DNA of 64,000 bases, taken from NCBI GenBank assembly GCA_913057825.1, contig CAJXOW010000007.1:906-64905 (forward strand), written 5' to 3'. A program made the translations under genes and the position numbers. This stretch comes from an uncultured Balneolaceae bacterium (GTDB taxonomy: Bacteria; Bacteroidota; Rhodothermia; Balneolales; Balneolaceae). The first letter of the stretch is position 1; each line of letters starts with the position of its first letter. The notes beneath the pieces were generated by a model. That model was given only the letters and a program-made list of their open reading frames with translations. It ran no database searches and was not told the DNA's origin. Shown here one piece after another: positions 41,046-60,585 of the stretch.

Positions 41046-41195
41046 CAGGCCGGCTCCTCGTTCTAAAAGTTTTCTCACGAATATCGACAAAATCCGGGTT
41101 AAGCGCCATTAACGAAACGGTAATCACTTATACTCGCGATTTTCAAGAAAACTTTAATACTTCGGATCCGGCCTGCCGACAACGATGATATGCTA
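41046..41195. repeat. Family-2 palindromic element, copy D (most divergent)
   Basis: 18-bp perfect arms TCGTTGTCGGCAGGCCGG / CCGGCCTGCCGACAACGA. Core ends CTCCTCGTTCTAAAAGTTTTCT ... AGAAAACTTTAATACTTCGGATCC resemble those of E, F and G. Confidence 0.7.
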
Positions 41196-41233
41196 TTTAC
41201 ATTAAATCAAGTTCAATTAAACAGGAGTTTGTT

Positions 41234-42190
41234 ATGAGTCGAAGAAGATATTTTATTCAACAATCGGTAATGGTGATGGTCGCGGCGTTGTTGTGGACGA
41301 TGACCGTGTGTGTAAATTCCGTGCGTGCCCAGGCGGATCAACCGGATTCAGACCGACCGGTGTACCGAACGGAATCGTTTTCCATTGACACCCCGGCCGA
41401 GCTGAACGTGCATACCTCAGGCGGATTTATCAATGTGAGCGGCCGGGAAGGATCGGATGTGACGGTTAAAGTATATGTGCAGAAAGACGGCCAATATTTG
41501 TCGACGGATCAGACCGATCTGAAGAATTATGATCTGACGATCGAACACGAAGGATCGAAGATTGACGTCCGTGCCAAAAGCAAGGGGTTCTGGGGAAATA
41601 ACAGCATGTCGGTTTCTTTTGTCGTCACGGTCCCCCGTCAGACGAGCAGCGAGCTGCATACCAGCGGTGGATCAATCACTACTAAAAATCTCGAGGGACA
41701 GCAGCAAGTACGCACGAGCGGCGGACATCTGACCCTCACGGATATTGAAGGCAAGACCGAGGCCCGCACGTCCGGAGGCCATATCAACTTGTCGAACGTC
41801 ACCGGCGACACGGAAGCGCGTACCAGCGGCGGACATATCCAGGTGGACGGCCTCACTGGCAACTCCAGCTTGCGAACGTCGGGCGGTCATATCACGCTCA
41901 ACGACATTGCAGGTACGATCAATGCCAGAACCTCCGGCGGCCATATAAACGCTGCAATAGTGGAAGTCGGCGATCATGTTGACCTGAAAACCAGCGGCGG
42001 CAACGTCCACGTCACTGTTCCCGGCGGTAAAGGCTACGACCTGGACCTGGAAGGCAACATGGTCAGCTCCAAGCTCGAAAACTTCAACGGATCGGTCGAG
42101 CGAGATGAAGTCAAAGGTACGGTCAACGGCGGCGGACCGCGCGTTTATGCCAAAACTTCCGGCGGGATGGTTAAGGTTGACTACAAATAA
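41234..42190 (+). CDS. DUF4097-type beta-strand repeat protein (putative adhesin)
   Basis: Signal peptide plus repeated (A/V)RTSGGHI(N/T/Q)L units, at least 8 copies. Confidence 0.75.
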   Translation: MSRRRYFIQQSVMVMVAALLWTMTVCVNSVRAQADQPDSDRPVYRTESFSIDTPAELNVHTSGGFINVSGREGSDVTVKVYVQKDGQYLSTDQTDLKNYDLTIEHEGSKIDVRAKSKGFWGNNSMSVSFVVTVPRQTSSELHTSGGSITTKNLEGQQQVRTSGGHLTLTDIEGKTEARTSGGHINLSNVTGDTEARTSGGHIQVDGLTGNSSLRTSGGHITLNDIAGTINARTSGGHINAAIVEVGDHVDLKTSGGNVHVTVPGGKGYDLDLEGNMVSSKLENFNGSVERDEVKGTVNGGGPRVYAKTSGGMVKVDYK

Positions 42191-42209
42191 TTCTTCGTTG
42201 CTTTGCCGG

Positions 42210-42361
42210 GTAAGCCCCGGATGACACGCGCTTCGGCGCAAAATTTCATATGTGTTGCTTTGTTTGCCGGTTTTGAAGACTTGAGAACTTTGACGGTATG
42301 AACTCGTATTTAAGACTATAGGGAAAATTTTGCGGCGAAGCACGTGTCATCCGGGGCTTAC
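42210..42361. repeat. Family-1 palindromic element, copy B
   Basis: 38-nt arms GTAAGCCCCGGATGACACGCGCTTCGGCGCAAAATTT... / ...AAAATTTTGCGGCGAAGCACGTGTCATCCGGGGCTTAC with 2 mismatches. The interior is nearly identical to copy C. Confidence 0.8.
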
Positions 42362-42443
42362 AAACAACTTCATACTGACCTTGATACCTCAAATTTATTG
42401 GGGGGGAAAACTAGTTTGGAAGTAGTACCCGGGTCATATGATG

Positions 42444-44795
42444 CTATTTTAGAAGTAACATTTTGTGTGATTTCCTGAAAGACTCAGTTTTGAGCCGGTA
42501 GATATACGTGCCGCTGGTTAATCTCCCGGCATCAAATTTAACTGCATGTCGACCGGCGGATTGACGTTTTTTGACCACTGTAGCTATGTGCTTGCCCAGC
42601 AAGTTGAAGACTTGCAGTGTTACCTCTGTTGCCTCCGGGAGATTATAACGGATCGTAGTCGTCGGATTGAAGGGATTGGGATAAGGCTTATATAACTTAT
42701 ATGATTCCGGAATATCCGTTTTAGAAGTCAAATCCGAGATCGTCCCTACGACGAAACTCAATGTATCGGTAGATGTTTGGAGGGAATCTTTATCGATGGC
42801 CGTCACAGACCAGTAGTATCTGGTGTTATTATCCAACATAATACGAGGAGTAAACGAGGTATCCGTTCCGGTTTCAAACCGGTGTACCCCTTCGGTCAGG
42901 TTTTTATTTTTAGCCAACTTAACGGAATATCTCACGGTATCAACCGGATCTTTGTCGTAGGTTGACTCCCAAATTAGCTTTGCCAGTTGTGAAATCCCCG
43001 TTTCCGCTGAATCCGGTGATATCAAATTGAATGCTTCGGGAGGCGTCGGACCTGTATTGATCCAAAAAGATGCCGTATCTGTAATGGATGTACTCCCATG
43101 TTCATCCATAGCTTCCACATACCAAAAATAACGGGTGTCATCCTTCAACTCACTATCCGGCTGCACCCGATTGGTATCACTCGCCCATACATGAGCATTT
43201 TTAAAAGAAGAATCCGTCGCAACATAAATCCGGTAGCTTAACTCCTCCTGTAAATTCGGATCCTCAGGCTTTTCCCACGTAAATACCGGTTTTCGCTCGG
43301 TTAACTGCTTACCCTGTTCCGGGAATTGGAGCGAAAAGGGTCCCGGTGCAATGTTGTCCGGATCATAGCCGAATTTTTGAAATCCATTTAGATTTCCGGT
43401 CCCGTTCCCATGCTGATCTTCCGCAATTACTCTCCATTGATAATAGGTACTGTTGCTTAGTGACGGGGAAACTTTCATACTTGTACTCTCGCCTGCATCG
43501 TACTCATGGATTATGCCTGTAGAATCCTTTATCTGAAGCTTATAAGTAACCACATCTCCCGCATCCTGGTCGTTCGTTGCCTGCCAGTTGAATGACAGGG
43601 TTTTCTGTTCAAAGACCGATCCATTGTTCGGAGTACCGACTTGAAAGACTTCCGGTTGGCGGTTAGTGCTTTTAAAAGCGTACAAGTGATCTGAAGCCGT
43701 TATATACAAACGGCCTTGCGATCCCATTGCCGGGGTGGTTACCGAACCGTCAATCACCTCGTCCCATTCCAGTGTGCCATCGGTATTAAACACATAGAAA
43801 TTGGCTCGGTCCAGCGGTTGATGAGAACCGAGATAAATGTGCCCTGCTTGTCCCACGGTAACGGAATGTCGATCTCTGTGTTCAACCACTCTTTTCCACT
43901 TTAGATTACCCCCCTTATCCAGCGCAAACAAAGTTTTACCTTCCCCGGATACATATATATTTCCATAGGGACCAACAGTTGGCGACCTGAGTAGGCCGGC
44001 GGGGGTATTTGCTTTAGCTCTGAATTTCCATTTCAGGGTCCCGTTGGGATATAATGCAAAAACCTCGGATCCCGCTCCCACATATACATTTCCGTCTTTA
44101 TCCACTGCCGGAGTGGACAAATACGTATGTTCAATCCGGTACTCCCATTTTAAACTTCCATCCGGGGTAATCGCTCGCACATGAAAATCAACCGACGCGA
44201 CATAGATGGTACCGTCCGGACCTATAGCCGGCGATGCCTTCATACCATACCCATTATCATATTTCCATTTCAGACTTCCGTCGGGTTGAAGGGCATATAG
44301 TGCTTCTCCCGCATTAAAATAGATCGTCCCGTCATCCCCGATTACAGATTTTTCATCCATATTGCCACTCGTTCCAAAGGTCCACTTTATACTGCCATCC
44401 AAATTCAATGCATACAATGAATCATTTTCAGACATCACATAGACCGTTCCATTATTACCCAAAGTGGGAACGGCCCTTCTAAACATGGCATCCGCTTTAA
44501 ATCTCCATTTTTCGGTACCATCGGGATTCACCGCATGCACTACGCTATCCGAACTGAAGTAGACTGTTCCGTCTTGACCTATGGTGGGGGAGGAAGGGAT
44601 GGTCCCGAGAACTTCGAAGTCCCACAGCAACCGGTCGGTTGACGGCCCCACATATTCACTCAATCCCGAATTTTGTGCATCATTGGCAAACGAAGGCCAC
44701 GGACTGTCGGCTAACTGGCCCCGGGTGCGGAAAGGAAATGAAACGCAAATTATTATAAGGACGGCTAAACCAACACTCCTTGAATAATATCGCAT
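42444..44795 (-). CDS. PQQ-like beta-propeller repeat protein with Ig/Fn3-like modules and a T9SS C-terminal sorting domain
   Basis: Repeated DG(T/S)(I/V)Y(F/V)...L(Y/F)A(L/I)...DG(S/T)LKWK(F/Y) blades. C-terminal YPNPFNPTTTIRYNLPEATEVTLQVFNLLGKHIATVV...GTYIYRL. Confidence 0.85.
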   Translation of the reverse strand: MRYYSRSVGLAVLIIICVSFPFRTRGQLADSPWPSFANDAQNSGLSEYVGPSTDRLLWDFEVLGTIPSSPTIGQDGTVYFSSDSVVHAVNPDGTEKWRFKADAMFRRAVPTLGNNGTVYVMSENDSLYALNLDGSIKWTFGTSGNMDEKSVIGDDGTIYFNAGEALYALQPDGSLKWKYDNGYGMKASPAIGPDGTIYVASVDFHVRAITPDGSLKWEYRIEHTYLSTPAVDKDGNVYVGAGSEVFALYPNGTLKWKFRAKANTPAGLLRSPTVGPYGNIYVSGEGKTLFALDKGGNLKWKRVVEHRDRHSVTVGQAGHIYLGSHQPLDRANFYVFNTDGTLEWDEVIDGSVTTPAMGSQGRLYITASDHLYAFKSTNRQPEVFQVGTPNNGSVFEQKTLSFNWQATNDQDAGDVVTYKLQIKDSTGIIHEYDAGESTSMKVSPSLSNSTYYQWRVIAEDQHGNGTGNLNGFQKFGYDPDNIAPGPFSLQFPEQGKQLTERKPVFTWEKPEDPNLQEELSYRIYVATDSSFKNAHVWASDTNRVQPDSELKDDTRYFWYVEAMDEHGSTSITDTASFWINTGPTPPEAFNLISPDSAETGISQLAKLIWESTYDKDPVDTVRYSVKLAKNKNLTEGVHRFETGTDTSFTPRIMLDNNTRYYWSVTAIDKDSLQTSTDTLSFVVGTISDLTSKTDIPESYKLYKPYPNPFNPTTTIRYNLPEATEVTLQVFNLLGKHIATVVKKRQSAGRHAVKFDAGRLTSGTYIYRLKTESFRKSHKMLLLK

Positions 44796-44899
44796 AATAT
44801 CCCTCTTTTTAAGCCTATCTGGAAAAATAAAACTTCATTTCAGTGTAATAACTTATATAGGATACATCTCTTTCTCAATTAGATGGGTCATAATTGATT

Positions 44900-45036
44900 C
44901 CTGATGACACGCGCTTCGGTGCCAAATTTTATACGTGTTGCTTTGTTTGCCGGTTTTGAAGGCCTGAGAACTTTGACGGTGCGAACTCGTATTTAAGACT
45001 ATAGGGAAAATTTTGCGCCGAAGCGCGTGTCGGTTG
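44900..45036. repeat. Family-1 palindromic element, copy C (outer 3' arm partly deleted)
   Basis: Arms GACACGCGCTTCGGTGCCAAATTTT / AAAATTTTGCGCCGAAGCGCGTGTC. Same orientation as copy B. Confidence 0.8.
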
Positions 45037-45224
45037 AAAAGTATGGGTTGCTTTTTTACCTCTCGACAAGGACTGGCTTGAAACCAAGGAGGAACATTAA
45101 GGGATTAACCAAATAATTTGGATACACTCTTTGGAAATCGCGTTCGTTAGTCCTATTCTTTATAGTTTGTTCCGGATCATATTTGTTCGCCGCAATTTGA
45201 ATTTTCAGTTATTGTAAACCGCGT

Positions 45225-48041
45225 ATGTCTCAGTCGAAATCTGCCGCTCATGCCAAGGCCAAGGAAAAAGCCAAAGAGATTGAAGATCGCCCGATCAAGG
45301 TCAAAGGTGCCCGGGTCCACAATCTGAAAAATATTGACGTGGAACTGCCCCGCAACCAGATGACGGTGGTGACGGGCGTGTCGGGATCCGGAAAGACGAG
45401 CCTGGCGTTTGACACGATTTATGCCGAGGGACAGCGTCGCTACGTCGAGAGCCTGTCGAGCTATGCCCGACAGTTTCTTGAGCGAATGGACAAGCCTGAC
45501 GTTGATTTCATGCAGGGCATCTCCCCGGCGATGGCGATTCAGCAGAAGACCACCTCCAACAACCCGCGATCGACGGTGGGGACGACGACGGAGATCTACG
45601 ACTATGTCCGATTGCTCTTTGCGCGGGTCGGCAAGACCATTTCGCCGGTTTCGGGGGAAGAGGTCAAAAAAGACTCGCCCGAAACGATCATCGACGACTT
45701 GATGGAGCAGGAGGAAAAGACCAAGTTCTACGTGCTCTTCCCGATCCCGCATCACGAGGAGCGCGATATGGAGGAAGAGCTGGACGTCCTTAAAGAGAAG
45801 GGATTCACCCGCCTGCTGCAGGTCGAGGATGAAGAAATGGTGGATATCACTCGCGATGAGGTGGATCCCGATAATATCGATCGTGAGAACTGGCGCGTGC
45901 TGGTCGACCGGCTGGCCGTGAAGCACGACGATCAGACCCGCAGCCGGATGACGGAGTCGGTCGAAACGGCGTTTCGCGAGGGACATGATCGCTGCTCTAT
46001 CAAATACCGGGACGGCGAAGAGAAGTATTACAGTCAACGGTTCGAGCGCGACGGTATGGAGTTCATGGAACCCAGCCCGCGGATGTTCTCCTTTAACAAC
46101 CCCTACGGGGCATGCGAGACGTGCGAAGGGTTCGGTCGGGTGACCGGCATCGACGAGAACAAGGTGATTCCCGATCCGCAGCAAACCATTCGCAACGGGG
46201 CCATCGCACCGTTCGACTCCAAGAAGTTCAGCCGACACCTGCGGGACCTGATTAAAGTATCGGCCCGGTATGAATACCCGATTGACACCCCGTACAAACA
46301 GCTGTCTGACGAGTACAAAGAGGTCATCTGGAACGGTAAGGACGAATACGATGGCATCTATCCGTTCTTTAAGAAGATCAAAAGCAAATTTTACAAGGTG
46401 CACATGCGCGTGTTTTACGCGCGGTACCGCGGATACAGTCGCTGTCCCGATTGCGACGGCTACCGGGTGCGACCCGAGGCGTTGAATGTGAAGGTCGGGG
46501 ATGCGCACGTGGGTGAGGTCACCGAAATGTCGATCGGGAAGGCGCGCGAGTTTTTCGAGGAGCTGGAGCTTTCCGAATTCGAGAAGGAAGTGGCCGAGCA
46601 GATATTGTACGAGATCCGCAAGCGGTTGAAATATCTTGACGAAGTGGGACTCGAGTATTTGACCCTCGACCGACAGACGCGGACCCTCAGCGGGGGCGAG
46701 TCGCAGCGGATCAGCCTGGCGAATTCGCTGGGAAGTTCGTTGATCGGGAGTCTGTACGTGCTTGACGAGCCGACGATCGGGCTGCACCCGCGGGATAACG
46801 ACCGGTTAATCAATATTTTGAAGTCGCTCCGCGATATCGGCAACACGATCCTGGTGGTCGAACACGATCCGGAAATGATTCGCCAGGCCGACAACATCCT
46901 GGATCTGGGGCCTTTTGCCGGAGTCCACGGCGGCGAGGTCGTCTTTGAAGGGTCGTACGATGATCTGTTGGAAGCGAACACCCTTACTGGCAAGTACCTG
47001 AGCGGACGCAAGAAAATTCCGGTCCCCGACGAGCGCCGCGACGGCAGTGACAAAAGCATCACCCTTAAAGGCGCCACCGAACACAACCTGAAGCACATCG
47101 ACGTCGAGTTTCCGCTGAACAAGCTGGTGTGCGTGACCGGCGTGAGCGGCTCCGGCAAATCGACCCTGATTCACGATACGCTGTTTGCCGCCATCCAGGA
47201 CGAACTAGGGACCTACAAAGATGAAGTCGGCCGACATAAAGCGATCGAGGGACTGGAGCATATCGATAACGTGGAGATGGTCGATCAGAGCCCGATCGGT
47301 CGGTCGAGTCGCTCGAATCCCGCCACCTACACCAAGGCCTTCGACGGGATCCGGGACCTGTTCGCCAATACGCGTCAATCGAAGATCATGGGATACACGC
47401 CCGGACACTTCTCCTTCAACGTCCCCGGCGGACGATGTGAAACGTGCGAAGGCGAGGGCGTACAGACCATCGAGATGCAGTTTCTGGCCGACATCGAACT
47501 CACCTGCGAGGCCTGCGGCGGGACCCGCTACCGCAAGGAGATTCGGTCCGTCAAATACCGGGGCAAGAGCATCACCGATGTGCTCGACATGACCGTCAGT
47601 GAGGCTATCGAATTTTTTGTCGACGAGAAATCGATCACCAACAAGCTCCAGCCGCTCGAAGACGTGGGACTCGGTTACCTGAAACTCGGTCAGAGCGCCA
47701 CCACGCTGTCCGGCGGCGAGGCCCAGCGCGTGAAGCTTGCCAAGTTCCTGACCAGCACCAGCAGCGATCATACCTTTTACTTCTTCGACGAGCCGACCAC
47801 CGGCCTGCACTTCGAGGATATCAACCGGCTGCTCGCCTCCTTCAAGGAGCTCGTCGACAACGGTCACTCGGTCATCATCATCGAGCACAACCTCGATGTA
47901 ATTAAATCGGCCGACTGGATCATCGACCTGGGACCCGAAGGCGGCTACGGCGGCGGCAAGGTCGTCTGCACCGGCACGCCCGAAGAAGTGGCGCAAAACG
48001 AAGACAGTCACACGGGACGCTACCTGCAGAAAGTGTTATAA
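45225..48041 (+). CDS. uvrA: Excinuclease ABC subunit A
   Basis: Two ABC modules ([14 protein letters not shown] and [14 protein letters not shown]), zinc-finger CxxC pairs and LSGGE signatures. 938 aa. Confidence 0.97.
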
Positions 48042-48076
48042 AGCTTGAAGTAGAGCCTGACTTCAGATTAATTATC

Positions 48077-48334
48077 CTACTTATCATTATGGGGCGGAAT
48101 TTGGCTCGTATGCCAAACTGCTTCGATATAAATAGTTTCTTCTATAAGGCGGTAAGCAATCCTGTAATTACCTACAAGCAACTCCCGGAACGACTCCTCG
48201 CTAAATTCCGTGACCCCCCTTCCCAACCGGGGATTATTTTGCAATATATCTGTCTTACTTATGAGTTCTGAGCTCCATCTTGCAGCAGCTTCCAAATCAT
48301 CCCGGGCTATATAATCAACAAATTCATTGACCAT
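48077..48334 (-). CDS. ParE/RelE-family toxin-like protein, orphan and probably N-terminally decayed
   Basis: ...FVDYIARDDLEAAARWSSELISKTDILQNNPRLGRGVTEFSEESFRELLVGNYRIAYRLIEETIYIEAVWH fits the ParE fold pattern. The same frame upstream reads DIKWSRQAIR (the usual first strand) but has no canonical start codon. There is no room for an antitoxin gene. Confidence 0.55.
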   Translation of the reverse strand: MVNEFVDYIARDDLEAAARWSSELISKTDILQNNPRLGRGVTEFSEESFRELLVGNYRIAYRLIEETIYIEAVWHTSQIPPHNDK

Positions 48335-48421
48335 TCGAATGGCTTGCCGCGACCATTTTGATATCCCCCGTTAAGTTGATAGGTTGAAGTATTAGCTGTT
48401 ATTAAGCCAGAGAAACCAACC

Positions 48422-52764: not shown

Positions 52765-52924
52765 GACTTCCGCTCCGGTCTTTGTTTAAGATAGGACCAG
52801 ATGCAAAGCGCCAACACAATAATCATCGGTGCCAGCAGCCAAATCCAAGTGGGGAGCGTTAATGAAGTCGGGTGCATTTTATATGGCTTATTGGTTGTTA
52901 TGTTGGTGGTTGCTTTTAAGGAAA

Positions 52925-53079
52925 GCTCGAGGCTGGAGGCTCGAAGCTCGAGGCGGCTTATGGCCTTTAAACTTCATTTGTGGCTGTATATTTATCGAGA
53001 TAACAAGCATTCTAATTTAGCCGTGGCTTACTTTAAAAAATCCAGCCATGCCTCGAGCCTCCAACTTCGAGCCTCGAGC
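52925..53079. repeat. Heptad-arm palindromic element X3
   Basis: 5' arm GCTCGAG GCTGGAG GCTCGAA GCTCGAG GC. 3' arm GC CTCGAGC CTCCAAC TTCGAGC CTCGAGC. The terminal units pair, but the two middle units are in swapped order. Interior of about 95 nt. Confidence 0.7.
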
Positions 53080-53091
53080 ATTGTTAGAAAT

Positions 53092-53334
53092 TTACTTTCT
53101 AACAATCTTCCCTTTCGGTGTTATGGTTTCGCCCGGTCCGGGTTCTTCGGTCGGAAAATCGCCGATGGAGACGTCGGGATCCCGGTCGTGGGGGACGTAG
53201 TGGACGTGAGAGCCGTGGGAGACGGCGGTATAGGGCTTGGGATTGAATACCCCGAGCGCATCCGCCAGGGCCAAACCGGCCAGAATCACGATCCCGACAA
53301 TTACCACATATTTAAGTATATTTTTGCGCGTCAT
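53092..53334 (-). CDS. Small membrane-anchored His-rich protein (hypothetical)
   Basis: 80 aa with one TM segment, then SHGSHVHYVPHDRDPD. Coding status is plausible but unproven. Confidence 0.4.
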   Translation of the reverse strand: MTRKNILKYVVIVGIVILAGLALADALGVFNPKPYTAVSHGSHVHYVPHDRDPDVSIGDFPTEEPGPGETITPKGKIVRK

Positions 53335-53556
53335 ATATGTGCTTATTCATTCTACTTTAAACCGTGGAATAACTTATTCCTGCGATGCTTATGTATTCTT
53401 ATGAAATGATGCTTTAAACTAACGCTTCCTAATGCAATGGAAATAATATGAATGCTCCTGAAACCTTATGAATCCATGCTTTTTTATGATTAATGTATCT
53501 TTACCGGCTTGTTGCCTTTGGTCCCGACGCCTATTGGGACCTGCGTTGCGAGTGGC

Positions 53557-53634
53557 TTGTCCTCCCCCTGTCACCGACCCTTGTCGGAGACTTTCCCCCC
53601 TACCGACAGTGGTCGGCACAGGTCCGAAGGGGGA
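53557..53634 (+). repeat. C-run motif element, copy R4 (expanded, with two internal hairpins)
   Basis: TTGTCCTCCCCCTG, TCACCGAC-CCTT-GTCGGAGA, CTTTCCCCCCTA, CCGAC-AGTG-GTCGG, CACAGGTCCGAAGGGGGA. It ends 10 nt from the GAF gene stop codon. Confidence 0.65.
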
Positions 53635-53644
53635 CTTCCTCGGG

Positions 53645-54127
53645 TCAGAACAAGATGGCCACTTTATCGCAAATTTGCTCACAGAGCCGCTGGTGCTGTT
53701 CAGAGATTGAATTTTTGGTATGGGAGTCGATATCCAGTTCAGCGACAAACCGGCCGTTTTTCATGACCGGAACGACAATTTCTGACTGCACGTGCACGCT
53801 GCAGGATAGATAATTCGTGGCCTGGCTGACGTCCTGGACGACAAACGTCTCCTCGGTCTCGGCCGCTTGTCCGCAGATCCCCGTACCAAACGGAATACGC
53901 GTGTGCTCGGTCGGTTCGCCTACATAGGGCCCTAACACCAACTCCCGCTCCTTTTCTTCATCCCGCAGGTAAAATCCGACCCAGTCGAAGACAGAAACTT
54001 CTGACGAAAGCAGTTCGCAAATCTGCTTTAACATAACCTCCCGCTCGTCCGAGCGACGCATGATGTTATCGACTTCCGTTGTCAATTCATCAACTTGTTC
54101 ATCCGTAAGCGATGTCGTAGCACTCAT
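53645..54127 (-). CDS. GAF domain protein (free methionine-(R)-sulfoxide reductase-like)
   Basis: 160-aa single GAF domain with FDWVGFYL...LGPY.G......IPFG.GICG motifs typical of the YebR/fRMsr family. Confidence 0.7.
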   Translation of the reverse strand: MSATTSLTDEQVDELTTEVDNIMRRSDEREVMLKQICELLSSEVSVFDWVGFYLRDEEKERELVLGPYVGEPTEHTRIPFGTGICGQAAETEETFVVQDVSQATNYLSCSVHVQSEIVVPVMKNGRFVAELDIDSHTKNSISEQHQRLCEQICDKVAILF

Positions 54128-54368
54128 GAATTTTGTTTAATGATTCTTGTTAAACCGATGCTGTATAAATATAACCAACTGTCAATTCTTTTCGGGCACG
54201 ACTGATCATTTCAACCTGATATGTATCCCTTTCAACCGTACTTTCCTTTAATCCAAATTTTATGGAACCGTTAATCTCAAATTACTGTTACCACAAACGA
54301 AGCATCTGTCTCGAGAATGTATAATCTAGGAGTCTTTCACAAATTCACAAATACATACATAATAACTT

Positions 54369-54605
54369 ATGGCAGAACCCAAAATTGCGCAGAAGGGACC
54401 TTTTGTTCTTGAAGTTGAACCCGGCAATCATGCGTGGTGCCAGTGCGGTCGATCCGAAAACCAACCTTATTGCGACGGATCGCACAAGGGCACCGGTATT
54501 AAACCCAAAGTTGTAAAGATCGAAGAAGAGCAAGAAATCGCCTGGTGCGGATGCAAGCAATCGGGCAACAAGCCGTATTGTGACGGTACGCACAACGAGT
54601 TGTAA
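54369..54605 (+). CDS. CDGSH iron-sulfur domain protein (two CDGSH motifs)
   Basis: CQCGRSENQPYCDGSHKG and CGCKQSGNKPYCDGTHNE. Confidence 0.9.
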   Translation: MAEPKIAQKGPFVLEVEPGNHAWCQCGRSENQPYCDGSHKGTGIKPKVVKIEEEQEIAWCGCKQSGNKPYCDGTHNEL

Positions 54606-54733
54606 GATCACAGGTATTTATTTGATCCGAAATACCTATCTCAACTCACCGTGATTTCATATCACCTATATTGAGGGGACCACGGGCTTGTTGACAATGA
54701 AAATCCACAGACGGTCAAGCACCTATCGGGAAC

Positions 54734-54901
54734 CTAGGAGGCTGTCGGACTTTCCGGTTCGCAACGAAAAAAAGTCCGGTTTGAGGTAGATTTGGCCGAT
54801 TTTGACGTAGAATAGCGGGGCTATTTAAGGAAAAATCGGCCCAAAGATACTCAAATCCGGCTTTTTTGCAGTAGAATTGTGAAAGTCCGGCAGCCTCCTA
54901 G
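54734..54901. repeat. Singleton 168-nt rod-like palindromic element H
   Basis: Outer 21-bp arms CTAGGAGGCTGTCGGACTTTC / GAAAGTCCGGCAGCCTCCTAG, with one T:G position. Inner arms AAAAAAGTCCGGTTTGAGGTAGATTTGGCCGATTTT / AAAAATCGGCCCAAAGATACTCAAATCCGGCTTTTTT also pair. Confidence 0.8.
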
Positions 54902-55017
54902 AAGGAATTAATTTAACTTTCCTGTTAATGTTGCTATTTTGCTTTTAAGATCTATCTATATGGGAATCCGTTTTAAACAAATAATGCAGTAGGGGCTGAA
55001 CCAAACTTCAAGCCACG

Positions 55018-56232
55018 TTGGAAGCTACTAAAAGAGATGTCATCCTGGTTGGCGGCGGACATGCCAGCATTCCCTTGATCAAACAAGCCAAAAAGTGGTC
55101 AGAGCAGGGAATCTCTGTCATGTTGATCACGGCCAGCCAATATCTCTACTACTCCGGTATGGTTCCGGAATACCTGGGAGGCGTATACCGGCGCGAACAG
55201 GTGCGAATCGACCTTCAGGCGTTGTGTCTGGCCCATAATATAGAATTTCGCAAAGCGCAAGTAGTTGGCCTCGAACCCGAGCATCGCCGGTTAACTACGG
55301 CGAAAGGCGACCGTTACGTTTGTCGGCTGACCGTCTTCGATATCGGCTCTCGCAACCCAAATCTGCCGGGTATGGAGAATATCAGTCCCACGAAACCGCT
55401 TCACAAGATTGAGCGGCTGGAAAAATTCACGGAAAATCACCTGCTTAACCCGACCGAAAGCAAAAAACAACACCTCGTTATCGTCGGCGGAGGGGCAGCC
55501 GGCGTCGAGATTGCTCTCAATATCAGCGCCCGGGTAAAAGCGTACCAACGACACACTTCGCTCAAACTTACTCTTATCGAAGAGCAGGACCGGCTCCTGT
55601 CCCGCTTCCCCGCCTCGGCCGGCGAGTACGTGAGCGACTGGCTGCAAAAACGCGGCGTAGACGTCCGCATAAAACGCAAAACCACGCGAATTGACAAGGA
55701 TCAACTGGTGTTGGACGACGACCATACGCTGCCCTATGACTTTGGTTTATGGGCCACCGGGCCGACGGGTCAGCCCATCTTTGCTGAAGCCGGATTGGAG
55801 TGCGACCAGAAACAATTTTTATGGATTGAGGATACCCTTCGTCACGCTGAATACCCCTGGTTATTCGCCGCCGGCGATTGCGTTCGCATCCGTCAACTGC
55901 CCGATCTGGAAAAGCTGGGGATTCATGCCGTCAAGCAGGGAGCACAACTTCTGCATAATGTAGACGCAGCCGTACAACAGATGGTGGAGGGCAACCACCC
56001 CAAGGACGCTGAATTGGAGTCCTTTAAACCTTATCCTGTCGCCCCCGTCATCATTTCGACCGGCGGCAAAAAAGCAATCTGGATCACCTCTCGCACCTGG
56101 TTCTCCGGCAAAAGCTTCCTGCGACTTAAACACTGGCTTGACGCCCGGTGGATTGAGGATTACCAATACCCCATCGATCAAAAGATTGCGCTTTCTGAAA
56201 AACTGCACACCCGTTATGCTTTAAAGCAATAA
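55018..56232 (+). CDS. FAD-dependent pyridine nucleotide-disulfide oxidoreductase
   Basis: VILVGGGHAS and LVIVGGGAAGVE dinucleotide-binding motifs, plus the AAGDC motif. TTG start. Confidence 0.75.
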   Translation: MEATKRDVILVGGGHASIPLIKQAKKWSEQGISVMLITASQYLYYSGMVPEYLGGVYRREQVRIDLQALCLAHNIEFRKAQVVGLEPEHRRLTTAKGDRYVCRLTVFDIGSRNPNLPGMENISPTKPLHKIERLEKFTENHLLNPTESKKQHLVIVGGGAAGVEIALNISARVKAYQRHTSLKLTLIEEQDRLLSRFPASAGEYVSDWLQKRGVDVRIKRKTTRIDKDQLVLDDDHTLPYDFGLWATGPTGQPIFAEAGLECDQKQFLWIEDTLRHAEYPWLFAAGDCVRIRQLPDLEKLGIHAVKQGAQLLHNVDAAVQQMVEGNHPKDAELESFKPYPVAPVIISTGGKKAIWITSRTWFSGKSFLRLKHWLDARWIEDYQYPIDQKIALSEKLHTRYALKQ

Positions 56233-56395
56233 CATTGTGATAAAAGCGGGCGGCGGTTCCTTGCTCGAAAACTTTTCTTCGTATTGTGCTTTTTAACAAT
56301 AGTTCGAAATCTTATTAATCCTTATCATCCAATCCTGCTCTTGAACCAGAAAACTTTAATGCTTCGGAACCGCCGCCCGCTTTTATCACAATGTT
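56231..56395. repeat. Family-2 palindromic element, copy E
   Basis: Perfect 30-bp arms AACATTGTGATAAAAGCGGGCGGCGGTTCC / GGAACCGCCGCCCGCTTTTATCACAATGTT. The 5' arm starts inside the upstream stop codon. Conserved core ends TTGCTCGAAAACTTTTCTTCG ... CCAGAAAACTTTAATGCTTC. Confidence 0.85.
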
Positions 56396-56491
56396 ACCCA
56401 TTTTAGGGTTGGGTATTCCATTTATTAGCATTATTATTGGCGTTTCAGCCGTAATAGTTTAACATGGAACTAAAAGCAGAACCGACCCGCG

Positions 56492-57883
56492 ATGCATTCT
56501 GCGCTTAAAGTCATTGAAAAATCGTTAGCTGCCTTTGCCGACTGGATCTGGGGCGCCCCTTTGCTGATCGTTCTTTTGGGCGGGGGGATATTTTTCATTC
56601 TCTATTCACGCTTTCTGCCCTTCCGGTATTTTCGTCATGCGATCAACATTTTACTCGGCAAATACGATGATCCCGACGATCCCGGAGATATTAACCACTT
56701 TCAGGCGCTATCGAGCGCCCTTGCCGCAACGGTCGGTATGGGAAATATCAGCGGTACCGCCATCGCCATATTTATGGGCGGACCCGGTGCGCTATTTTGG
56801 ATGTGGGTCAGTGCCACCGTCGGTATAGCGACCAAGTTTTTTACCTGTACGCTGGCCGTCTTATACCGGGGAAAAGATTCACAGGGAAAACTCCAGGGCG
56901 GTCCGATGTACGTCATCCGCGAGGGACTGGGAAAGGCCTGGAAGCCGCTGGCCGTTCTTTTTGCCCTGGCCGGGCTCATTGGTCCGCTGCCGATCTTTCA
57001 GGCCAATCAGCTTACCCAGATACTACGGGATGTAATCTATATTCCATACGGCATGGCGACGGCCCAGGCACACTTTACGGTCGACTTTATTACAGGGGTG
57101 GTGCTTGCCGGATTGGTTTCGATCGTCATTTTCGGCGGTATTAAACGCATTGGCCGCGTTGCCTCCCGCATGGTACCCTTTATGGTAGTCTTATATGTAG
57201 GACTGGTGCTCGTTATCTTGGCCATGAATATTGAAGAAATCCCCTATTACCTCGGATTGATTGTAACCGATGCCTTTACCGGAAAAGCTGCAGCCGGCGG
57301 GGTGGTCGGATCCGTAATCGTCACCGGTATCCGACGCGGGGCCTTTTCGAACGAGGCGGGTATCGGGACCGAAGCGCTCGCTCACGGAGCCGCCAAAACC
57401 AAAGAGCCGGTCCGCGAGGGATTGGTAGCCATGCTGGGTCCGGCCATCGATACCCTGATCGTCTGCACCATGACTGCGCTGGCCATTCTTGTAACCGGCG
57501 TGTGGAAAACCAGCGAAGCAAATGGAGTAACCCTGACGCTTGATGCCTTCAATGCGGCCTTTGCGGGAGCGGGATCCCTGCTGCTCGGCATATGCGTGCT
57601 TATTTTCAGTCTGAGTTCGATGTTAACCTACTCCTATTACGGCTACAAATGCCTGGGATATTTGATCGGGGCCGAGCGACAGGGACTCTATAACTATTTG
57701 TACGTGATCACCATCGTATTCGGCAGTGTGGCTTCCCTGAAGGCGGTATTCAGCCTGATTGACGGCATGTTTGCCCTCATGGCCATCCCCACCATGGTTT
57801 CCTCGGTCCTGCTGGCTCCCAAAGTCATGGAGGCCGCCCGCGACTACTTCTCCCGCATTCACACGTTTGACATGCAGGATTGA
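56492..57883 (+). CDS. Alanine/glycine:cation symporter (AGCS family)
   Basis: 463 aa. FQALSSALAATVGMGNISGTAIAI and GAFSNEAGIGTEA motifs are typical of AGCS. Confidence 0.85.
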   Translation: MHSALKVIEKSLAAFADWIWGAPLLIVLLGGGIFFILYSRFLPFRYFRHAINILLGKYDDPDDPGDINHFQALSSALAATVGMGNISGTAIAIFMGGPGALFWMWVSATVGIATKFFTCTLAVLYRGKDSQGKLQGGPMYVIREGLGKAWKPLAVLFALAGLIGPLPIFQANQLTQILRDVIYIPYGMATAQAHFTVDFITGVVLAGLVSIVIFGGIKRIGRVASRMVPFMVVLYVGLVLVILAMNIEEIPYYLGLIVTDAFTGKAAAGGVVGSVIVTGIRRGAFSNEAGIGTEALAHGAAKTKEPVREGLVAMLGPAIDTLIVCTMTALAILVTGVWKTSEANGVTLTLDAFNAAFAGAGSLLLGICVLIFSLSSMLTYSYYGYKCLGYLIGAERQGLYNYLYVITIVFGSVASLKAVFSLIDGMFALMAIPTMVSSVLLAPKVMEAARDYFSRIHTFDMQD

Positions 57884-57924
57884 GTCAGGAGATAAATAGT
57901 TTATAGTCGAGAAGAGGCCGCAAA

Positions 57925-58072
57925 TGACCAATCGGGCGGCAGTTCCTTGCTCGGAAACTTTTCTTTGTATTGCAGCTTCTAATAAAGTTCGTGAGCAGAT
58001 TACCAAAAATCCATTATCTTTGCTTTTGAACCAGAAAATTTTAATGCTTCGGAACCGCCGCCCGATTGGTCA
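57925..58072. repeat. Family-2 palindromic element, copy F
   Basis: 22-nt arms TGACCAATCGGGCGGCAGTTCC / GGAACCGCCGCCCGATTGGTCA with one A:C position. The core aligns with copy E over its whole length. Confidence 0.85.
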
Positions 58073-58103
58073 GGAAGCTTGCCTCCTACAGACATAAATC
58101 AAT

Positions 58104-59153
58104 ATGGTTGATTCGACTTCTCTTATCGATTCGGTTTCATCTCCACGAATCTCTGTGGTGATGCCGGCATACAACGCCGAGGACACCATCGAAGAGGCCA
58201 TTGAAAGTATTCTTAACCAGGAAGCATCCGACTTTGAGCTGCTGGTCATTGATGACGGCTCCACCGACGCAACCCCGGAACTGATTCAAATATGGGAGCA
58301 ACAAGACGCCCGTCTCATCTATCACCGGCAACCCCACAAAGGCATCACCTCCGCCCTGAACCTCGGACTACGAGAAGCCCGCGGACGGTATATCGCCCGC
58401 ATGGATGCCGACGATATATCGTTCCCAAATCGATTGCAACTTCAATCTGACTATCTGGACCGAAATAACGGTGTTGGAGTTATCAGCGGAAAAGTTAGAT
58501 TCAAGGGATTGGAAGAAGACTATAACGGATATGCACGATACGTGGAGTGGGTCAACAGCCTGGATTCAGAAAACGATATATCGTTGAACAGATTCATCGA
58601 ATCGCCCATCCCCCATCCTTCTGTCATGTTTCGACGATGGATCGTAGAAACGCTGGGCGGGTATCGTGACGGTGATTTTCCCGAGGATTACGAGTTATGG
58701 CTGCGCTGGATGAACGCCGGAATTAGATTTCACAAATTGGACCAGGTCATTCTACAATGGCACGATCATCCCGCACGACTATCGCGGAATCATCCCCGGT
58801 ATCACCGGATGGCATTTCACCGGATCAAGGCCTATTATCTATCCCGATGGCTGGAACTTTACAACCCTTTTCATCCCGAGGTGGTTATCTGGGGTTCGGC
58901 CCGTTCCAACCGAAAACGGGCAAAGTTGCTGGAGCGTCACGGTATTCGCATTACGGCGTTTGTAGACGTGAACCCCAATAAATTCGGACAAAAAATTCAC
59001 GGCATCCCGGTATGGTCGCCCGACGAGCTGCCGGAAGCAGGATCCTGTTTTGTAATTCCTTTCGTGGCTACACGCGGAGCTAATTCGGACATAGCTGACG
59101 TCCTGGAAGCCAAACACTACCGGGAAGGAATTGATTACTTGTTCGGAGCCTGA
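58104..59153 (+). CDS. Family 2 glycosyltransferase with a C-terminal extension
   Basis: ISVVMPAYNAEDTIEEAIESILNQEASDFELLVIDDGSTD and RMDADD motifs. Confidence 0.8.
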   Translation: MVDSTSLIDSVSSPRISVVMPAYNAEDTIEEAIESILNQEASDFELLVIDDGSTDATPELIQIWEQQDARLIYHRQPHKGITSALNLGLREARGRYIARMDADDISFPNRLQLQSDYLDRNNGVGVISGKVRFKGLEEDYNGYARYVEWVNSLDSENDISLNRFIESPIPHPSVMFRRWIVETLGGYRDGDFPEDYELWLRWMNAGIRFHKLDQVILQWHDHPARLSRNHPRYHRMAFHRIKAYYLSRWLELYNPFHPEVVIWGSARSNRKRAKLLERHGIRITAFVDVNPNKFGQKIHGIPVWSPDELPEAGSCFVIPFVATRGANSDIADVLEAKHYREGIDYLFGA

Positions 59154-59253
59154 CTTTGATGATTTAATAGATTCGCATAATGAAAGAGGTATTAGTATAG
59201 TTGTATGTATGCCATACGTAAAACGGTCTCAACCTGGAATATGAAAAAGAAAG

Positions 59254-60402
59254 TTGACAGGCGCTGGAATCTTTCGGTATCAACAATATGTCGAACAACG
59301 CAGAAACCTAAATCACACGACATTTCAACAATCAACTCCCGTGTCCTATAACATACCGGCCAATACAGACCAAAACCAATTTACCGATCCGGACGAATCA
59401 CGCGAGCAACTACGAAAACGCGTCAGTAAACATCCGGAACTTGAATATCAACCCCTGGGACTGAGCGAAGAGGGTCGCCCGCTCTATGCCGTAGAATTCG
59501 GAGAAGGCCCGCTACGGGTAAGTTTGCTGGCCGGGGCTCATTCGGATGAACCGGTGGGTCCTGAAACCTTGCGGCTTTTTATCAACACCCTCATGGCCGA
59601 ATCCGGCCAAAAATCAATCAAAAAGTTAAAAGAAACGTTCACCTTTCACATTATTCCTCATATCAATCCTGACGGAGAGGCTGTCAACTGGCAGTGGATC
59701 CGGAAGTGGCCCGACATGGATTCCTACCTCCAGCATGCATTTCGCGAGCAGCCCGGCCGCGACCTGGAGTTCGGCTATCCGAATATGCGCGTGGAGAACC
59801 GGCTGGTATCGAGTTACCTGAGATCACAGGGGACCTTCGACCTTCACATGAGTTTGCACGGGATGGCATTTTCGGAGGGACTGATGCTGCTGATTGAACG
59901 ACACTGGATTGACCAAACCGAGTCGCTGCGAAATCATTTTAAAGCACTTGCCGACCAAAATGGTCTGCCGTTGCACGATCATGACCGCGGCGGAGAAAAG
60001 GGTTTTAAGTATATAGCCCCCGGTTTCAGCACAACTCCCGAGGGAAGAGCCATGCGGCAGCATTTTGAAAACAAGGGGGATACGGAAACCGCCCAAAAAT
60101 TCCACCTCAGCTCCATGGAATACGTCCGATCGCTCGGAGGCAGCCCGCTATGTCTGGTTACCGAACTTCCCCTGTTTCTGGTGGCATTTAAAGAAGAACC
60201 CGAAAAGACCGAACCGGATCAGCCGGAAGCTTATCTCTCCTTGAAAGAAAAAATTCCCTTACTGCGCAAACGTCGTTCGCAAGGCGAATCTTTCGATGAT
60301 TTACTGGCCCCCTATAAATTCACTTCCCTGCCCTTGTCAACCGCCCTGTCCATACAATTTCGAACGATCGAAGCGGCCCTGGAGTTGATAGAAGAAGCTT
60401 GA
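59254..60402 (+). CDS. M14-family zinc carboxypeptidase-like protein
   Basis: HSDEPVG (HxxE zinc site), PHINPDGE and SLHGM motifs. TTG start, because there is no in-frame ATG nearby. Confidence 0.7.
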   Translation: MTGAGIFRYQQYVEQRRNLNHTTFQQSTPVSYNIPANTDQNQFTDPDESREQLRKRVSKHPELEYQPLGLSEEGRPLYAVEFGEGPLRVSLLAGAHSDEPVGPETLRLFINTLMAESGQKSIKKLKETFTFHIIPHINPDGEAVNWQWIRKWPDMDSYLQHAFREQPGRDLEFGYPNMRVENRLVSSYLRSQGTFDLHMSLHGMAFSEGLMLLIERHWIDQTESLRNHFKALADQNGLPLHDHDRGGEKGFKYIAPGFSTTPEGRAMRQHFENKGDTETAQKFHLSSMEYVRSLGGSPLCLVTELPLFLVAFKEEPEKTEPDQPEAYLSLKEKIPLLRKRRSQGESFDDLLAPYKFTSLPLSTALSIQFRTIEAALELIEEA

Positions 60403-60410
60403 GAAACACC

Positions 60411-60585
60411 ATTTAAGAGGTCTTTGGCCCACCGGACGGCCGGTTCCTTGCTCGGAAACTTTTCTTCGACAATTAGCAAGGAACGGGTGGTTGTCATATA
60501 TACGATCATAGTTTTTACAGGCTTATACCCAGAAAATTTTAATGCTTCGTAACCGGCCGTCCGGTGGGCCAAAAACCTCTTAAAT
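60411..60585. repeat. Family-2 palindromic element, copy G
   Basis: 35-nt arms ATTTAAGAGGTCTTTGGCCCACCGGACGGCCGGTT / AACCGGCCGTCCGGTGGGCCAAAAACCTCTTAAAT with one mismatch. Core ends CCTTGCTCGGAAACTTTTCTTCG ... CCAGAAAATTTTAATGCTTCG. It fills the M14/merR-like convergent spacer to within 1-9 nt of both stop codons. Confidence 0.85.

Follow-up and report, generated by a model that had tools for sequence, protein, structure and literature searches.

A dispersed MITE-like hairpin repeat of an uncultured Balneolaceae bacterium whose arms may be copied from one another by snap-back DNA synthesis

The bacterial MITEs Correia/NEMIS (Neisseria), ERIC/IRU (enterobacteria) and RUP (Streptococcus) fold into long hairpins, are frequently located in 3' untranslated regions, where their effects depend on orientation, and vary in presence between close relatives. 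REPINs are inverted REP doublets mobilised by RAYT transposases. Some insertion sequences target hairpins or REPs: IS1397/ISKpn1 enter the loops of palindromic units, and members of IS110/IS1111 enter REP. The attC sites of integrons carry the R''/R' consensus RYYYAAC...GTTRRRY. Snap-back or template-switch synthesis is the mechanism behind quasipalindrome mutations.

Here we describe a repeat family found in a window of 64,000 nucleotides, the whole stretch of DNA analysed, from an uncultured Balneolaceae bacterium. Our preferred reading, to which we give a probability of about 0.45, is that the repeat is a non-coding, non-autonomous, MITE-like mobile element in which hairpin-templated (snap-back, template-switch) synthesis both creates and maintains the complementarity of the arms, which would make the repeat an unusual variant of the bacterial miniature mobile elements and not a structured RNA. 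The copies and related features in the window are as follows.

41036..41185, + strand: element D, a member of a diverged 'D-like' subfamily (model score 79.7 bits)
41036-41057 / 41164-41185, + strand: arms of D, 22 nt with 1 mismatch
41052-41169, + strand: core of D, GGCTCC...GGATCC
41017-41033 / 41192-41208 (41017..41208), + strand: imperfect outer inverted repeat around D, 17 nt, 82% complementary
54145..54162, + strand: solitary sequence TCTTGTTAAACCGATGCT resembling a long-form left arm (uncertain; by-eye alignment, ~13/18 positions)
56230..56396, + strand: element E (model score 117.5 bits)
56230-56260 / 56366-56396, + strand: arms of E, 31/31 complementary
56255-56371, + strand: core of E, GGTTCC...GGAACC
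57925..58072, + strand: element F (model score 119.7 bits)
57925-57946 / 58051-58072, + strand: arms of F, 22 nt with 1 mismatch
57941-58056, + strand: core of F
60411..60585, + strand: element G, a 'long form' copy (model score 125.1 bits)
60411-60447 / 60549-60585, + strand: arms of G, 37 nt with 2 mismatches
60442-60554, + strand: core of G

An earlier note on this DNA had described four elements of one architecture; all four are present on the + strand, with D, which the note placed at 41046-41195, shifted by 10 nt. The sequence of D is identical in metagenome contig L113, and its outer repeat is set off from the inner arms by asymmetric gaps of 2 nt and 6 nt. The left arm of E begins at the T of the upstream gene's TAA stop codon; the position of this stop is ancestral, the 404-residue proteins being colinear with the orthologue on L001. 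G occupies the whole spacer of two convergent genes, lying 8 nt past one stop codon and 1 nt short of the other.

D, E, F and G are members of a single repeat family; the 281 kb analysed of the genome that contains the window yielded 46 distinct copies, bearing out the family described in the earlier note. The core motif is present on 38 metagenome contigs, two of which are 100% identical to the window and thus come from the same genome. The 3' core 24-mer AGAAAAYTTTAATRCTTCGKAWCC has four matches in the window and none in 100 shuffles, and we estimate the density of the repeat in this genome at ~60 copies per Mb. The family had no match among 185,579 species-representative reference genomes, in the plasmid search or in Rfam, and no partner insertion sequence was found for it.

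The conserved unit, ~127-131 nt in length, has the order GGGCGGCGG-GGTTCC...GGAACC-CCGCCGCCC, in which GGGCGGCGG and CCGCCGCCC form a G+C clamp, the hexamers pair and the interior is mostly exactly 101 nt. Inward of the hexamers come an 8x8 internal loop, which is asymmetric, and a short A/T stem; the ~60 nt in the centre vary in sequence but hardly in length. The pairing proposed earlier from the four copies holds on the 43 copies examined, with GGTTCC opposite GGAACC, TTTTCT opposite AGAAAA, and two direct GCT(T)CGG motifs facing each other in the internal loop. The description of the elements as rod-like applies to the outer ~33 nt on each side and fails for the central ~60 nt, which has neither conserved sequence nor consensus structure. 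The boundary of the unit is given by copies L081 and L085, which are identical in core and clamp and have unrelated arms outside GGGCGGCGG.

Beyond the unit the arms stay Watson-Crick complementary for another 5-27 nt, and the junction between arm and clamp is seamlessly complementary in the 43 copies. In most copies the distal arms are complementary within the copy and unrelated between copies, as had been claimed; the exception among the four is G, whose arm is a long form common to about a third of copies. The arms contribute 940 pairs, comprising 910 Watson-Crick pairs, 7 G-T, 9 A-C and 14 transversion mismatches. Up to a distance of 17 nt from GGTTCC, no fewer than 84% of copies show Watson-Crick pairing, and from position 9 outward each position shows three or four pair types, mostly all four. 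Of the cells in the clamp and core stems, 96.7% are paired; 73 show a change on both sides and only 5 on a single side. Shuffles gave 12.7 both-side changes, and none of 500 reached the observed number. Private substitutions and differences in clamp length are mirrored across both arms. Compensation so nearly confined to Watson-Crick pairs (73 against 5 cells, and 7 G-T in the arms) points to copying at the level of DNA and not to selection on RNA.

The ancestral full-length form carries an additional ~23-nt terminal inverted repeat, ATTTAAGAGGTCTTTGAAAAACC. This long-form arm is common to ~14-16 copies, including G, is always attached to a core and was never found empty, whereas ~25 of 43 copies have arms without similarity to it. 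The long-form arm is also present on a diverged homologue in a sister species (L001, ~6245-6425), whose arms have decayed, so that homogenisation is not universal. It is found, too, on an element of another family at L091(-) 2347-2490. Private differences mirrored in the same way occur in the Family 1 elements of the window, and in a third family (GGAGC-type) unique perfect hairpins abut 8 of 12 element ends. In long-form copies the flanks past the tip are also inverted (for example ATTTA...TAAAT), but this extension amounts to 3-7 nt only, indicating that snap-back extension is no open-ended ratchet. Direct target duplications are absent from all copies. In L092 and L100 the long form persists on the right but the left side is truncated, and these two copies look like uncorrected intermediates. 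The site of the solitary TCTTGTTAAACCGATGCT corresponds to the complete homologous element of the sister species, and TCTTGTTAAACCGATGCT may be either a remnant or native sequence.

The element is mobile, being absent from the sister species at each of the five orthologous sites compared; mobility was part of one of the earlier note's two explanations. No hairpin-only site, which that note had proposed to look for, was seen at these five positions, where the spacers have diverged. The only relative is ~80% identical in DNA, and no empty site close enough to show exactly one native arm was found. At the best-aligned site (L096 copy b against L124) both arms are absent. E, F and G have no detectable remnant at the corresponding sister-species sites, although the adjacent spacer is still ~85% alignable. 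E is younger than the species split, so its unrelated arms cannot be the outcome of slow drift. The sister-species counterpart of the E site contains a small hairpin-like sequence, AAAAACC...GGGCTTTTAT, with a base similar to the inner arm of E, but the likeness is not significant.

The family, its mobility, the boundary of the unit, the ancestral long form and the compensation confined to Watson-Crick pairs are observed; the snap-back step itself, and its timing at integration or afterwards, we infer from these patterns. During replication or integration, a strand already holding both halves of the clamp would fold back on itself, and DNA synthesis would copy the first arm and adjoining unique DNA onto the opposite side. 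Such snap-back or template-switch copying would yield perfectly complementary arms and would pass on to one arm whatever private substitutions, indels or one-sided truncations the other had acquired. Because synthesis would start at the clamp and run outwards, the asymmetric internal loop would be left untouched. Template switching has been reported to make the arms of inverted repeats homogeneous and to extend them (PMC8794818, PMC8604942, PMC13100816, PMC7202029). Loss of the long-form outer arm needs an extra step under this model, either one-sided deletion or truncated insertion. By itself the model does not explain why left arms so often start near stop codons or why they favour purines (R>Y 18:7) and A (A>T 16:6). 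The terminator-like arms of L111, the decayed arms of the L001 homologue and the lack of an empty site with exactly one native arm count against it.

Several of these points would be expected if a ~127-nt unit entered pre-existing hairpins, mostly intrinsic terminators just past stop codons, and replaced their loop and upper stem, so that copy-specific arms were native terminator stems; the route could be microhomology-guided template switching between G+C-rich stems. Of 17 copies adjoining a co-oriented gene end, 10 have a left arm whose start lies no more than 12 nt from the stop codon of the upstream ORF or reaches as far as 8 nt inside it, and the arms are polarised as in terminators, with A enriched on the left and T on the right (16:6). 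The arms of L111 form a 15-bp G+C stem flanked by AAAATAA and TTATTTT, with the look of a textbook terminator; the AAAATAA consists of the last codon and the stop codon native to a T9SS-type tail. Native perfect hairpins of 9-20 bp occur at gene ends in this genome, and the different arms on the identical cores of L081 and L085 and the hairpin-like sequence at the sister-species E site fit as well. Yet all 26 native hairpins have loops of 3-12 nt, and none of the 43 copies retains a loop remnant. The majority of unique arms either are rich in A+T or lack a following T run, a third of arms came with the element by descent, and a second explanation would be needed for the mirrored private changes in the long form. 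No hairpin-only site was seen at any of the five positions, and neither arm at the L096 copy b site. We rate this route as less probable than snap-back synthesis, yet as a serious alternative to it. In the form put forward by the earlier note, insertion into the apical loop of a palindrome, it is not supported, given the seamless junctions, a shared arm that never occurs without its core and the five orthologous positions without a hairpin-only site. The unoccupied example cited there, at 6045-6094, is an ordinary hairpin or terminator (20-bp stem, 10-nt loop, then a T run) between convergent ORFs and is unrelated to any arm. Distinctly less probable is movement of the element in single-stranded form after imprecise cutting at the 5' side, where fill-in synthesis of the recessed 3' end with the 5' arm as template (panhandle repair) would turn donor flank into a new perfect arm travelling to the new site. 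This would account for perfect arms in even the youngest copies (L085), for mirrored private changes, including a variant common to L098a and L095b despite different cores, for the absence of both L096 copy b arms from the sister-species site, and for the lack of direct duplication. However, unique arms replace the long-form arm and are not added to it, so each would need a 'naked' parent, and such copies are almost never seen. Moreover, unique arms match no other copy's flank in 281 kb, and those of E and L111 contain a native stop codon at its ancestral or canonical position.

The two remaining explanations are very improbable. If the repeat were an ordinary MITE whose terminal repeat is fixed, the 'unrelated' arms would be old, drifted long-form repeats with pairing restored by selection or occasional conversion, and cores would be kept alike through gene conversion between copies. 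The long form is indeed common to both species, the arms of L087a, L096b and L097a are recognisably diverged long forms with mirrored changes, the A run beside the clamp is kept in most copies, and arms and cores occur in mosaic combinations. Against this, ~25 of 43 copies have arms unlike the long form, those with the highest model scores carry unique arms, and the clean absence of E, F and G beside alignable spacer leaves too little time for >50% arm drift. The earlier judgement that neither a classical MITE nor a terminator fits cleanly is upheld. Slightly less probable still is a structured RNA family, or 3' UTR elements acting at the RNA level, with the closing stem kept by selection on folding, which the earlier note had offered as one of its two explanations. 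Covariation far above controls, folding energy z-scores of -4 to -7, the conserved asymmetric internal loop with its near-fixed interior length, and a modest co-orientation bias with the upstream gene (17 copies against 4) are all in keeping with it. But G-U pairs are almost absent, with no G-U bias among mismatches, the centre is unconserved, stems reach 42 perfect base pairs, the estimated density is tens of copies per Mb, presence differs between species and Rfam holds no match. Promoter-like and terminator-like signals at the elements are not above chance, and copies between tandem genes show no significant orientation bias (11:7). Under the preferred reading of snap-back synthesis, the elements may secondarily serve the upstream gene as 3'-end hairpins.

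Like Correia/NEMIS, ERIC/IRU and RUP, the Balneolaceae repeat is 100-200 bp long and non-coding, folds into hairpins, is dispersed in tens to hundreds of intergenic copies and has terminal inverted repeats, here in the ancestral form. It differs in that more than half of its copies lack the family terminal repeat and have unique, perfectly complementary arms instead, in the mirroring of private changes in both arms, and in having no visible direct target-site duplication or identified partner insertion sequence. With REPINs it shares a hairpin shape, non-autonomy, intergenic abundance, the absence of target duplication and maintained symmetry of the two halves, but REPIN arms (the REPs) are conserved and the spacer variable, the reverse of the conserved core and varying distal arms of this repeat. 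As in integron attC sites, structure is conserved over sequence, with a basal stem, an unpaired central spacer, a mismatched second stem and a variable terminal structure, directly 3' of ORFs. Unlike attC, the repeat lacks the R''/R' consensus, its order being GGTTCC...GGAACC, and its copies are dispersed in both orientations among syntenic housekeeping genes that are element-free in the sister species. Palindrome halves flank the inserted element as they do with IS1397/ISKpn1 and IS110/IS1111, but those target repeats and leave loop or target nucleotides at the junctions, in contrast to the unique arms and seamless junctions seen here. In quasipalindrome and template-switch mutagenesis (PMC7202029, PMC8794818, PMC8604942, PMC13100816), imperfect inverted repeats likewise become perfect in a single multi-nucleotide step, apparent compensatory changes arise without G-U intermediates, and arms can lengthen. 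That mutational process is known from individual loci, whereas in this genome it would operate systematically across an entire repeat family and apparently across further families as well.

Rereading of all four regions bore out the shared architecture that an earlier note had described for elements D, E, F and G of family 2, with common 5' and 3' ends and inverted-repeat arms. Read directly, their 5' end is GGTTCC-TTGCTCGG-AAACTTTTCT and their 3' end is AGAAAAYTTTAATGCTTCGGAACC, and a 24-mer across the 3' end has four matches in the window compared with 0 in 100 shuffles. Element D lies ten bases further left than first reported, at 41036-41185, and has a further imperfect outer inverted repeat outside its arms.

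Family-2 elements of the window, with arms as found by an inverted-repeat search
41036-41185, + strand, element D, arms of 22 nt with one mismatch
56230-56396, + strand, element E, arms complementary at 31/31 positions
57925-58072, + strand, element F, arms of 22 nt with one mismatch
60411-60585, + strand, element G, arms of 37 nt with two mismatches

The neighbours of D-G are ordinary chromosomal genes (proline dehydrogenase, DUF4097, pyridine-nucleotide oxidoreductase, Na/alanine symporter, glycosyltransferase, M14 peptidase and a MerR/B12 regulator). A Pfam scan of the eight adjoining proteins detected no transposase, and promoter-like and terminator-like matches at D-G were not above chance. 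Around G, at 60395-60410 and 60586-60601, the sequences AAGCTTGAGA and TCTCTTGCTT are complementary at 8 of 10 positions in register and, lying beyond the G arms, span the stop-codon regions of both convergent genes.

Judged by the symporter between E and F, the window comes from Balneolaceae. Its closest match is the genome of a sister species, the uncultured MAG GCA_964421495.1 (contigs L001, L119 and L124), with 91% protein and ~80% DNA identity; a search for near-identical strains by means of the flanking proteins gave no match between 100% and about 90% identity. The exact core motif had 0 matches in a search of one genome per GTDB species, and the family is therefore lineage-restricted. 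The motif was found on 38 metagenome contigs, and as two of these match parts of the window at 100% identity, the 38 contigs are fragments of the window's own genome. The species is present in the samples JGI 3300026966 and 3300027007, ENA ERZ508515/ORDC01 and SRR6201724. With a looser end motif and a covariance model trained on 43 copies, 46 distinct copies were identified in 281 kb. They are scattered over more than 35 contigs in both orientations. The density in the window (four copies per 64 kb) and the presence of a second copy on 11 contigs suggest ~60 copies per Mb, a closed genome being expected to carry on the order of 200, and the elements account for roughly 1% of the genome. Rfam 15 gave no match at gathering scores, the best sub-threshold hit being CsrB (18.4 bits, with 71 required), and neither Rfam at permissive thresholds nor a plasmid database gave a match to the element. 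The family breaks metagenome assemblies: contigs L095, L099 and L104 end inside the repeat, and three low-coverage contigs (L105, L115 and L122) connect left and right flanks that belong to different copies and are assembly chimeras. An apparent between-sample difference at the second of two copies on contig L096 (copy b) was discarded because the sole variant contig was an assembly chimera.

Across copies the element is 125-186 nt long, with an interior from GGTTCC to GGAACC of 101 nt in most copies and 101-106 nt in the rest. Over the ~25 nt at each end of the core, conservation is 90% or higher; in the middle, ~60 nt vary in sequence from one subfamily to another and keep nearly the same length. 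The consensus fold consists of the outer rod only, namely a G+C-rich clamp, the GGTTCC/GGAACC pairing, an 8x8 internal loop and an A/T stem interrupted by a single C-T mismatch. The internal loop with two direct GCT(T)CGG motifs, described previously, is recovered as this 8x8 loop, and the term "rod-like" is apt for ~33 nt per side but not for the whole element. Copies on contigs L081 and L085 are identical in core and clamp and unrelated outside GGGCGGCGG, so the conserved unit ends there, at a length of about 127-131 nt.

The outer arms are of two classes. About one third of copies, G included, carry ATTTAAGAGGTCTTTGAAAAACC beside the clamp (the long form); the GGGCGGCGG... clamp is present in most copies and the long-form tip in about 14-16. 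Within 281 kb the long-form arm was never found without the core, and it also bounds both a diverged homologue with a different clamp in the sister species (L001 ~6245-6425) and a member of another family (L091(-) 2347-2490). From these three observations ATTTAAGAGGTCTTTGAAAAACC is the ancestral terminal repeat, and the first of them led to the rejection, within the 281 kb, of the long-form arm as an independent palindrome family offering possible empty targets. The sister-species homologue, a copy present where the window has none, has the outer arm TCCTTGAAAAACCGG, as in the long form, and the clamp GTGAGAACGG; the orthologous position in the window (54145-54162) has only an 18-nt left-arm-like sequence, which is either a solo remnant or native sequence. 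Arms without detectable similarity to the long form, each unique within the sample, are found in about 25 of 43 copies. The claim that distal arms are unrelated between copies thus holds for these, D, E and F among them, but not for G, which shares the long form. Many unique-arm copies retain only an A run beside the clamp, and in the copies on L092 and L100 the right arm is still of the long form and the left is truncated.

Of the cells in the clamp and core stems, 96.7% are paired. Two-sided changes affect 73 cells and one-sided changes only five; shuffling gave 12.7 two-sided cells (0 of 500) and slid controls 3-10. Up to 17 nt from GGTTCC, each position is Watson-Crick paired in at least 84% of copies, with three to four pair types at each position from position 9 outward (mostly all four), and arm pairing falls to background by about 32 nt from GGTTCC. 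The arms contain 910 Watson-Crick pairs, 7 G-T pairs, 9 A-C pairs and 14 transversion mismatches. Clamp-length variants (GGGCGG, GGGCGGCGG and GGGCGGGCGG) are mirrored on both sides of a copy, as are private substitutions in long-form arms. Selection for RNA pairing would tolerate G-U pairs and pass via them. The near absence of G-T pairs and the mirrored changes therefore argue against such selection, and the arm pattern is the expected product of copying one DNA arm from the other. As in quasipalindrome template switching, Watson-Crick pairing is restored over multiple nucleotides without single-step (G-U) intermediates. The covariation anticipated for a structured RNA is strong, but its two-sided Watson-Crick changes with near-absent G-U speak against that idea. 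Overwhelming "covariation" in a repeat family can thus reflect DNA copying rather than selection on RNA structure; in practice, a near lack of G-U pairs distinguishes the former from the latter.

At all five sister-species sites compared (E, F and G in L001, and two L096 sites in L124) the element is absent, and the genes around copies keep synteny in the sister species without it. Insertion into the loops of pre-existing palindromes, the other explanation put forward earlier, is opposed by arm-to-clamp complementarity that is continuous in all copies, with no break between unique arm and clamp, whereas each of the 26 perfect hairpins native to these 281 kb has a loop of 3-12 nt. The supposed empty site at 6045-6094 (a 20 bp stem, 10-nt loop and T run between convergent ORFs) is one of these native hairpins, an ordinary-looking bidirectional terminator. 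A second ordinary-looking bidirectional terminator, AAAAAGGGACTGTC-gcgt-GACAGTCCCTTTTT, lies at 22995-23026. At the best-aligned site, that of L096 copy b, whose arms are a diverged long form, the sister flank aligns from 4 nt past the arm and has neither hairpin nor single arm. Traces of E, F and G in the L001 spacers were not significant by nhmmer or shuffled local alignments; at the E site L001 has a small hairpin-like AAAAACC...GGGCTTTTAT whose base resembles the E inner arm, again not significantly. The sister-species site for the L085 copy was rejected as an empty site, since synteny breaks exactly at the gene end and no site is readable. Sister synteny is broken exactly at two element positions (L085 versus L119, and the G site versus L001 13139-13405), and the repeats may therefore mediate rearrangements.

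The main rival to arm copying at the element itself is a modified form of hairpin capture, in which the top of a terminator is replaced through template switching at G+C microhomology. The left arm starts -8 to +12 nt from the stop codon in 10 of 17 copies beside a co-oriented gene end, the E arm begins on the ancestral stop codon, and the arm of the L111 copy includes the end of a canonical T9SS tail, from its last codon through the stop codon. The L111 arms resemble a textbook terminator stem with a T run, and left arms are rich in A and purines. It is for this stop-codon placement, the L111 copy and the left-arm composition that modified capture is retained, but the arm-clamp junctions are seamless, in contrast to the looped native hairpins whose tops would be replaced. 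No unique arm matches the flank of another copy in 281 kb, which makes a donor flank an unlikely source of the unique arms. The spacer just downstream of E is still about 85% alignable with the sister species, where E is absent; this timing rules out the E arms as a slowly drifted fixed terminal repeat of the long form, and they were written at or after insertion.

Several other repeats occur in the same genome.

Other repeats, in window coordinates unless a contig is named
37333-37474, 42210-42361 and 44906-45031, family 1, palindromic, ~130 nt, arms CCGGATGACACGCGCTTCGGCGCAAAATTT
36443-36643 and 52922-53106, L090 7421-7672, L099 2698-2905, L107 2983-3157 and L095 5960-6017, GGAGC-type family, arms of GCTCCA/TGGAGC-like hexamer runs
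18793-18847, - strand, whalefall-1 RNA motif (Rfam RF01762), 43.8 bits, hairpin GGTTCCGAC-GATT-GTCGGAACC
54734-54901, nested palindromic element, outer arms CTAGGAGGCTGTCGGACTTTC, inner arms AAAAAAGTCCGGTTTGAGG...
39840-40015, long inverted repeat, A+T-rich arms GAATTAGAAATTTTGAATTTTGAATT, 92%, 124 nt apart
22767-22873, long inverted repeat, perfect 17-nt arms GTTTCACGTGAAACATG, 73 nt apart

In family 1, which is the same size as family 2 and gives weak matches (19-25 bits) to the family-2 covariance model, substitutions private to one copy appear mirrored in both of its arms, as does a one-base indel. Unique perfect hairpins with 11-14-bp stems and 3-6-nt loops abut 8 of 12 GGAGC-type ends at 0 nt, with a different hairpin on either side of the L090 element; elsewhere they occur only about once per 10 kb. 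A diverged second copy of the whalefall-1-type hairpin, its stem bases changed, lies at 53550-53598, and a 51-nt block upstream of whalefall-1 is repeated 2.9 kb away (15812-15862 and 18681-18731). In L001, the stop codon at the site orthologous to F is followed immediately by AGTTCCGAC...33 nt...GTCGGAACT. The nested palindromic element recurs at L087 ~4535-4578, L090 ~4736-4903 and L094 ~4259-4347, and on L094 a family-2 copy immediately adjoins it.

We propose that the family-2 element is a MITE-like mobile repeat in which the 15-bp G+C clamp and GGTTCC/GGAACC would form a very stable intrastrand hairpin. In a nascent or transferred strand that contains both halves, the 3' end would anneal to the first arm and use it as template; the first arm and the unique DNA beside it would thus be copied as an exact complement before synthesis switched back to the original template. 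Such fold-back would explain why the arms are seamless and Watson-Crick-only, why substitutions and indels are mirrored, how one-sided truncations could be repaired into new unique arms and why direct target duplications are missing; the asymmetric internal loop would be preserved because it lies inside the priming stem. Template switching of this type is described as perfecting and extending inverted repeats (PMC7202029, PMC8794818, PMC8604942, PMC13100816). We infer the fold-back step with a nearest relative of only ~80% DNA identity. The arm-copying process seems general in this genome, given the mirrored differences in family 1 and the hairpins at 8 of 12 GGAGC-type ends. A bolder reading, to which we give a probability of roughly one in five, is that integration or upkeep writes an inverted copy of adjoining unique DNA rather than a direct duplication: a hairpin-shaped mobile element would spread or mature by snap-back synthesis, without a classical transposase signature, within a genome-wide tendency to build perfect hairpins at repeat borders (family 1 and GGAGC-type ends). 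The origin of long perfect hairpins has so far been studied mainly by reporter assays and phylogenetic reconstruction; if the arms are made by fold-back synthesis, the family offers a natural record, replicated many times over, of the origin and growth of long perfect hairpins in a bacterial genome.

Under stricter ORF calls the orientation relative to upstream genes was 11:7 in tandem contexts, and copies no more than 45 nt from an ORF's stop codon were co-oriented in 17 cases and anti-oriented in four. A strong co-orientation with genes, obtained with loose ORF calls, weakened under these calls, and the bias is only modest. Orientation had no link to GC skew, taken as a replication proxy (22:17), and several contigs hold two copies in opposite orientation. 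With roughly 1% of the genome occupied and frequent placement directly after stop codons, the elements may shape transcript 3' ends in Balneolaceae.

Among known systems, intrinsic terminators have loops of 3-10 nt, whereas the "loop" here is 101-106 nt, and T-rich sequence follows the clamp in some copies only. On this loop and the terminator scan of D-G, we agree with the earlier judgement that a terminator would be a poor fit. The layout resembles integron attC sites, but the R''/R' pair RYYYAAC...GTTRRRY is absent; the base is instead GGTTCC...GGAACC, with GTT on the left, AAC on the right and misfitting flanking bases. A co-oriented cassette array beside an integrase was not seen, the copies being dispersed and their neighbours syntenic without the element. 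MITEs are closer, since the elements are small, non-coding and present in many dispersed copies, with presence and absence at orthologous sites in both directions between the window species and its sister. Their terminal repeat is constant only in part, the clamp being shared by most copies and the distal arms departing from the long form in about 25 of 43, and unlike MITEs they are without direct repeats at the outer boundaries, where the flanks beyond the long-form tip are inverted and a palindromic TA is possible. The objection raised before to a classical MITE, a terminal repeat kept constant between copies, thus holds in part, and the missing direct target duplication is a second departure. 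In 281 kb no left and right ends of the family lie more than 140 nt apart, as they would in an autonomous insertion sequence; a related one would be bounded by AGAGGTCTTTGAAAAACC. In REPINs two inverted conserved REPs form the arms, whereas here the interior is conserved and the distal arms vary. These differences apart, hairpin-forming bacterial MITEs and REPINs are the systems that the family most resembles in the way it works.
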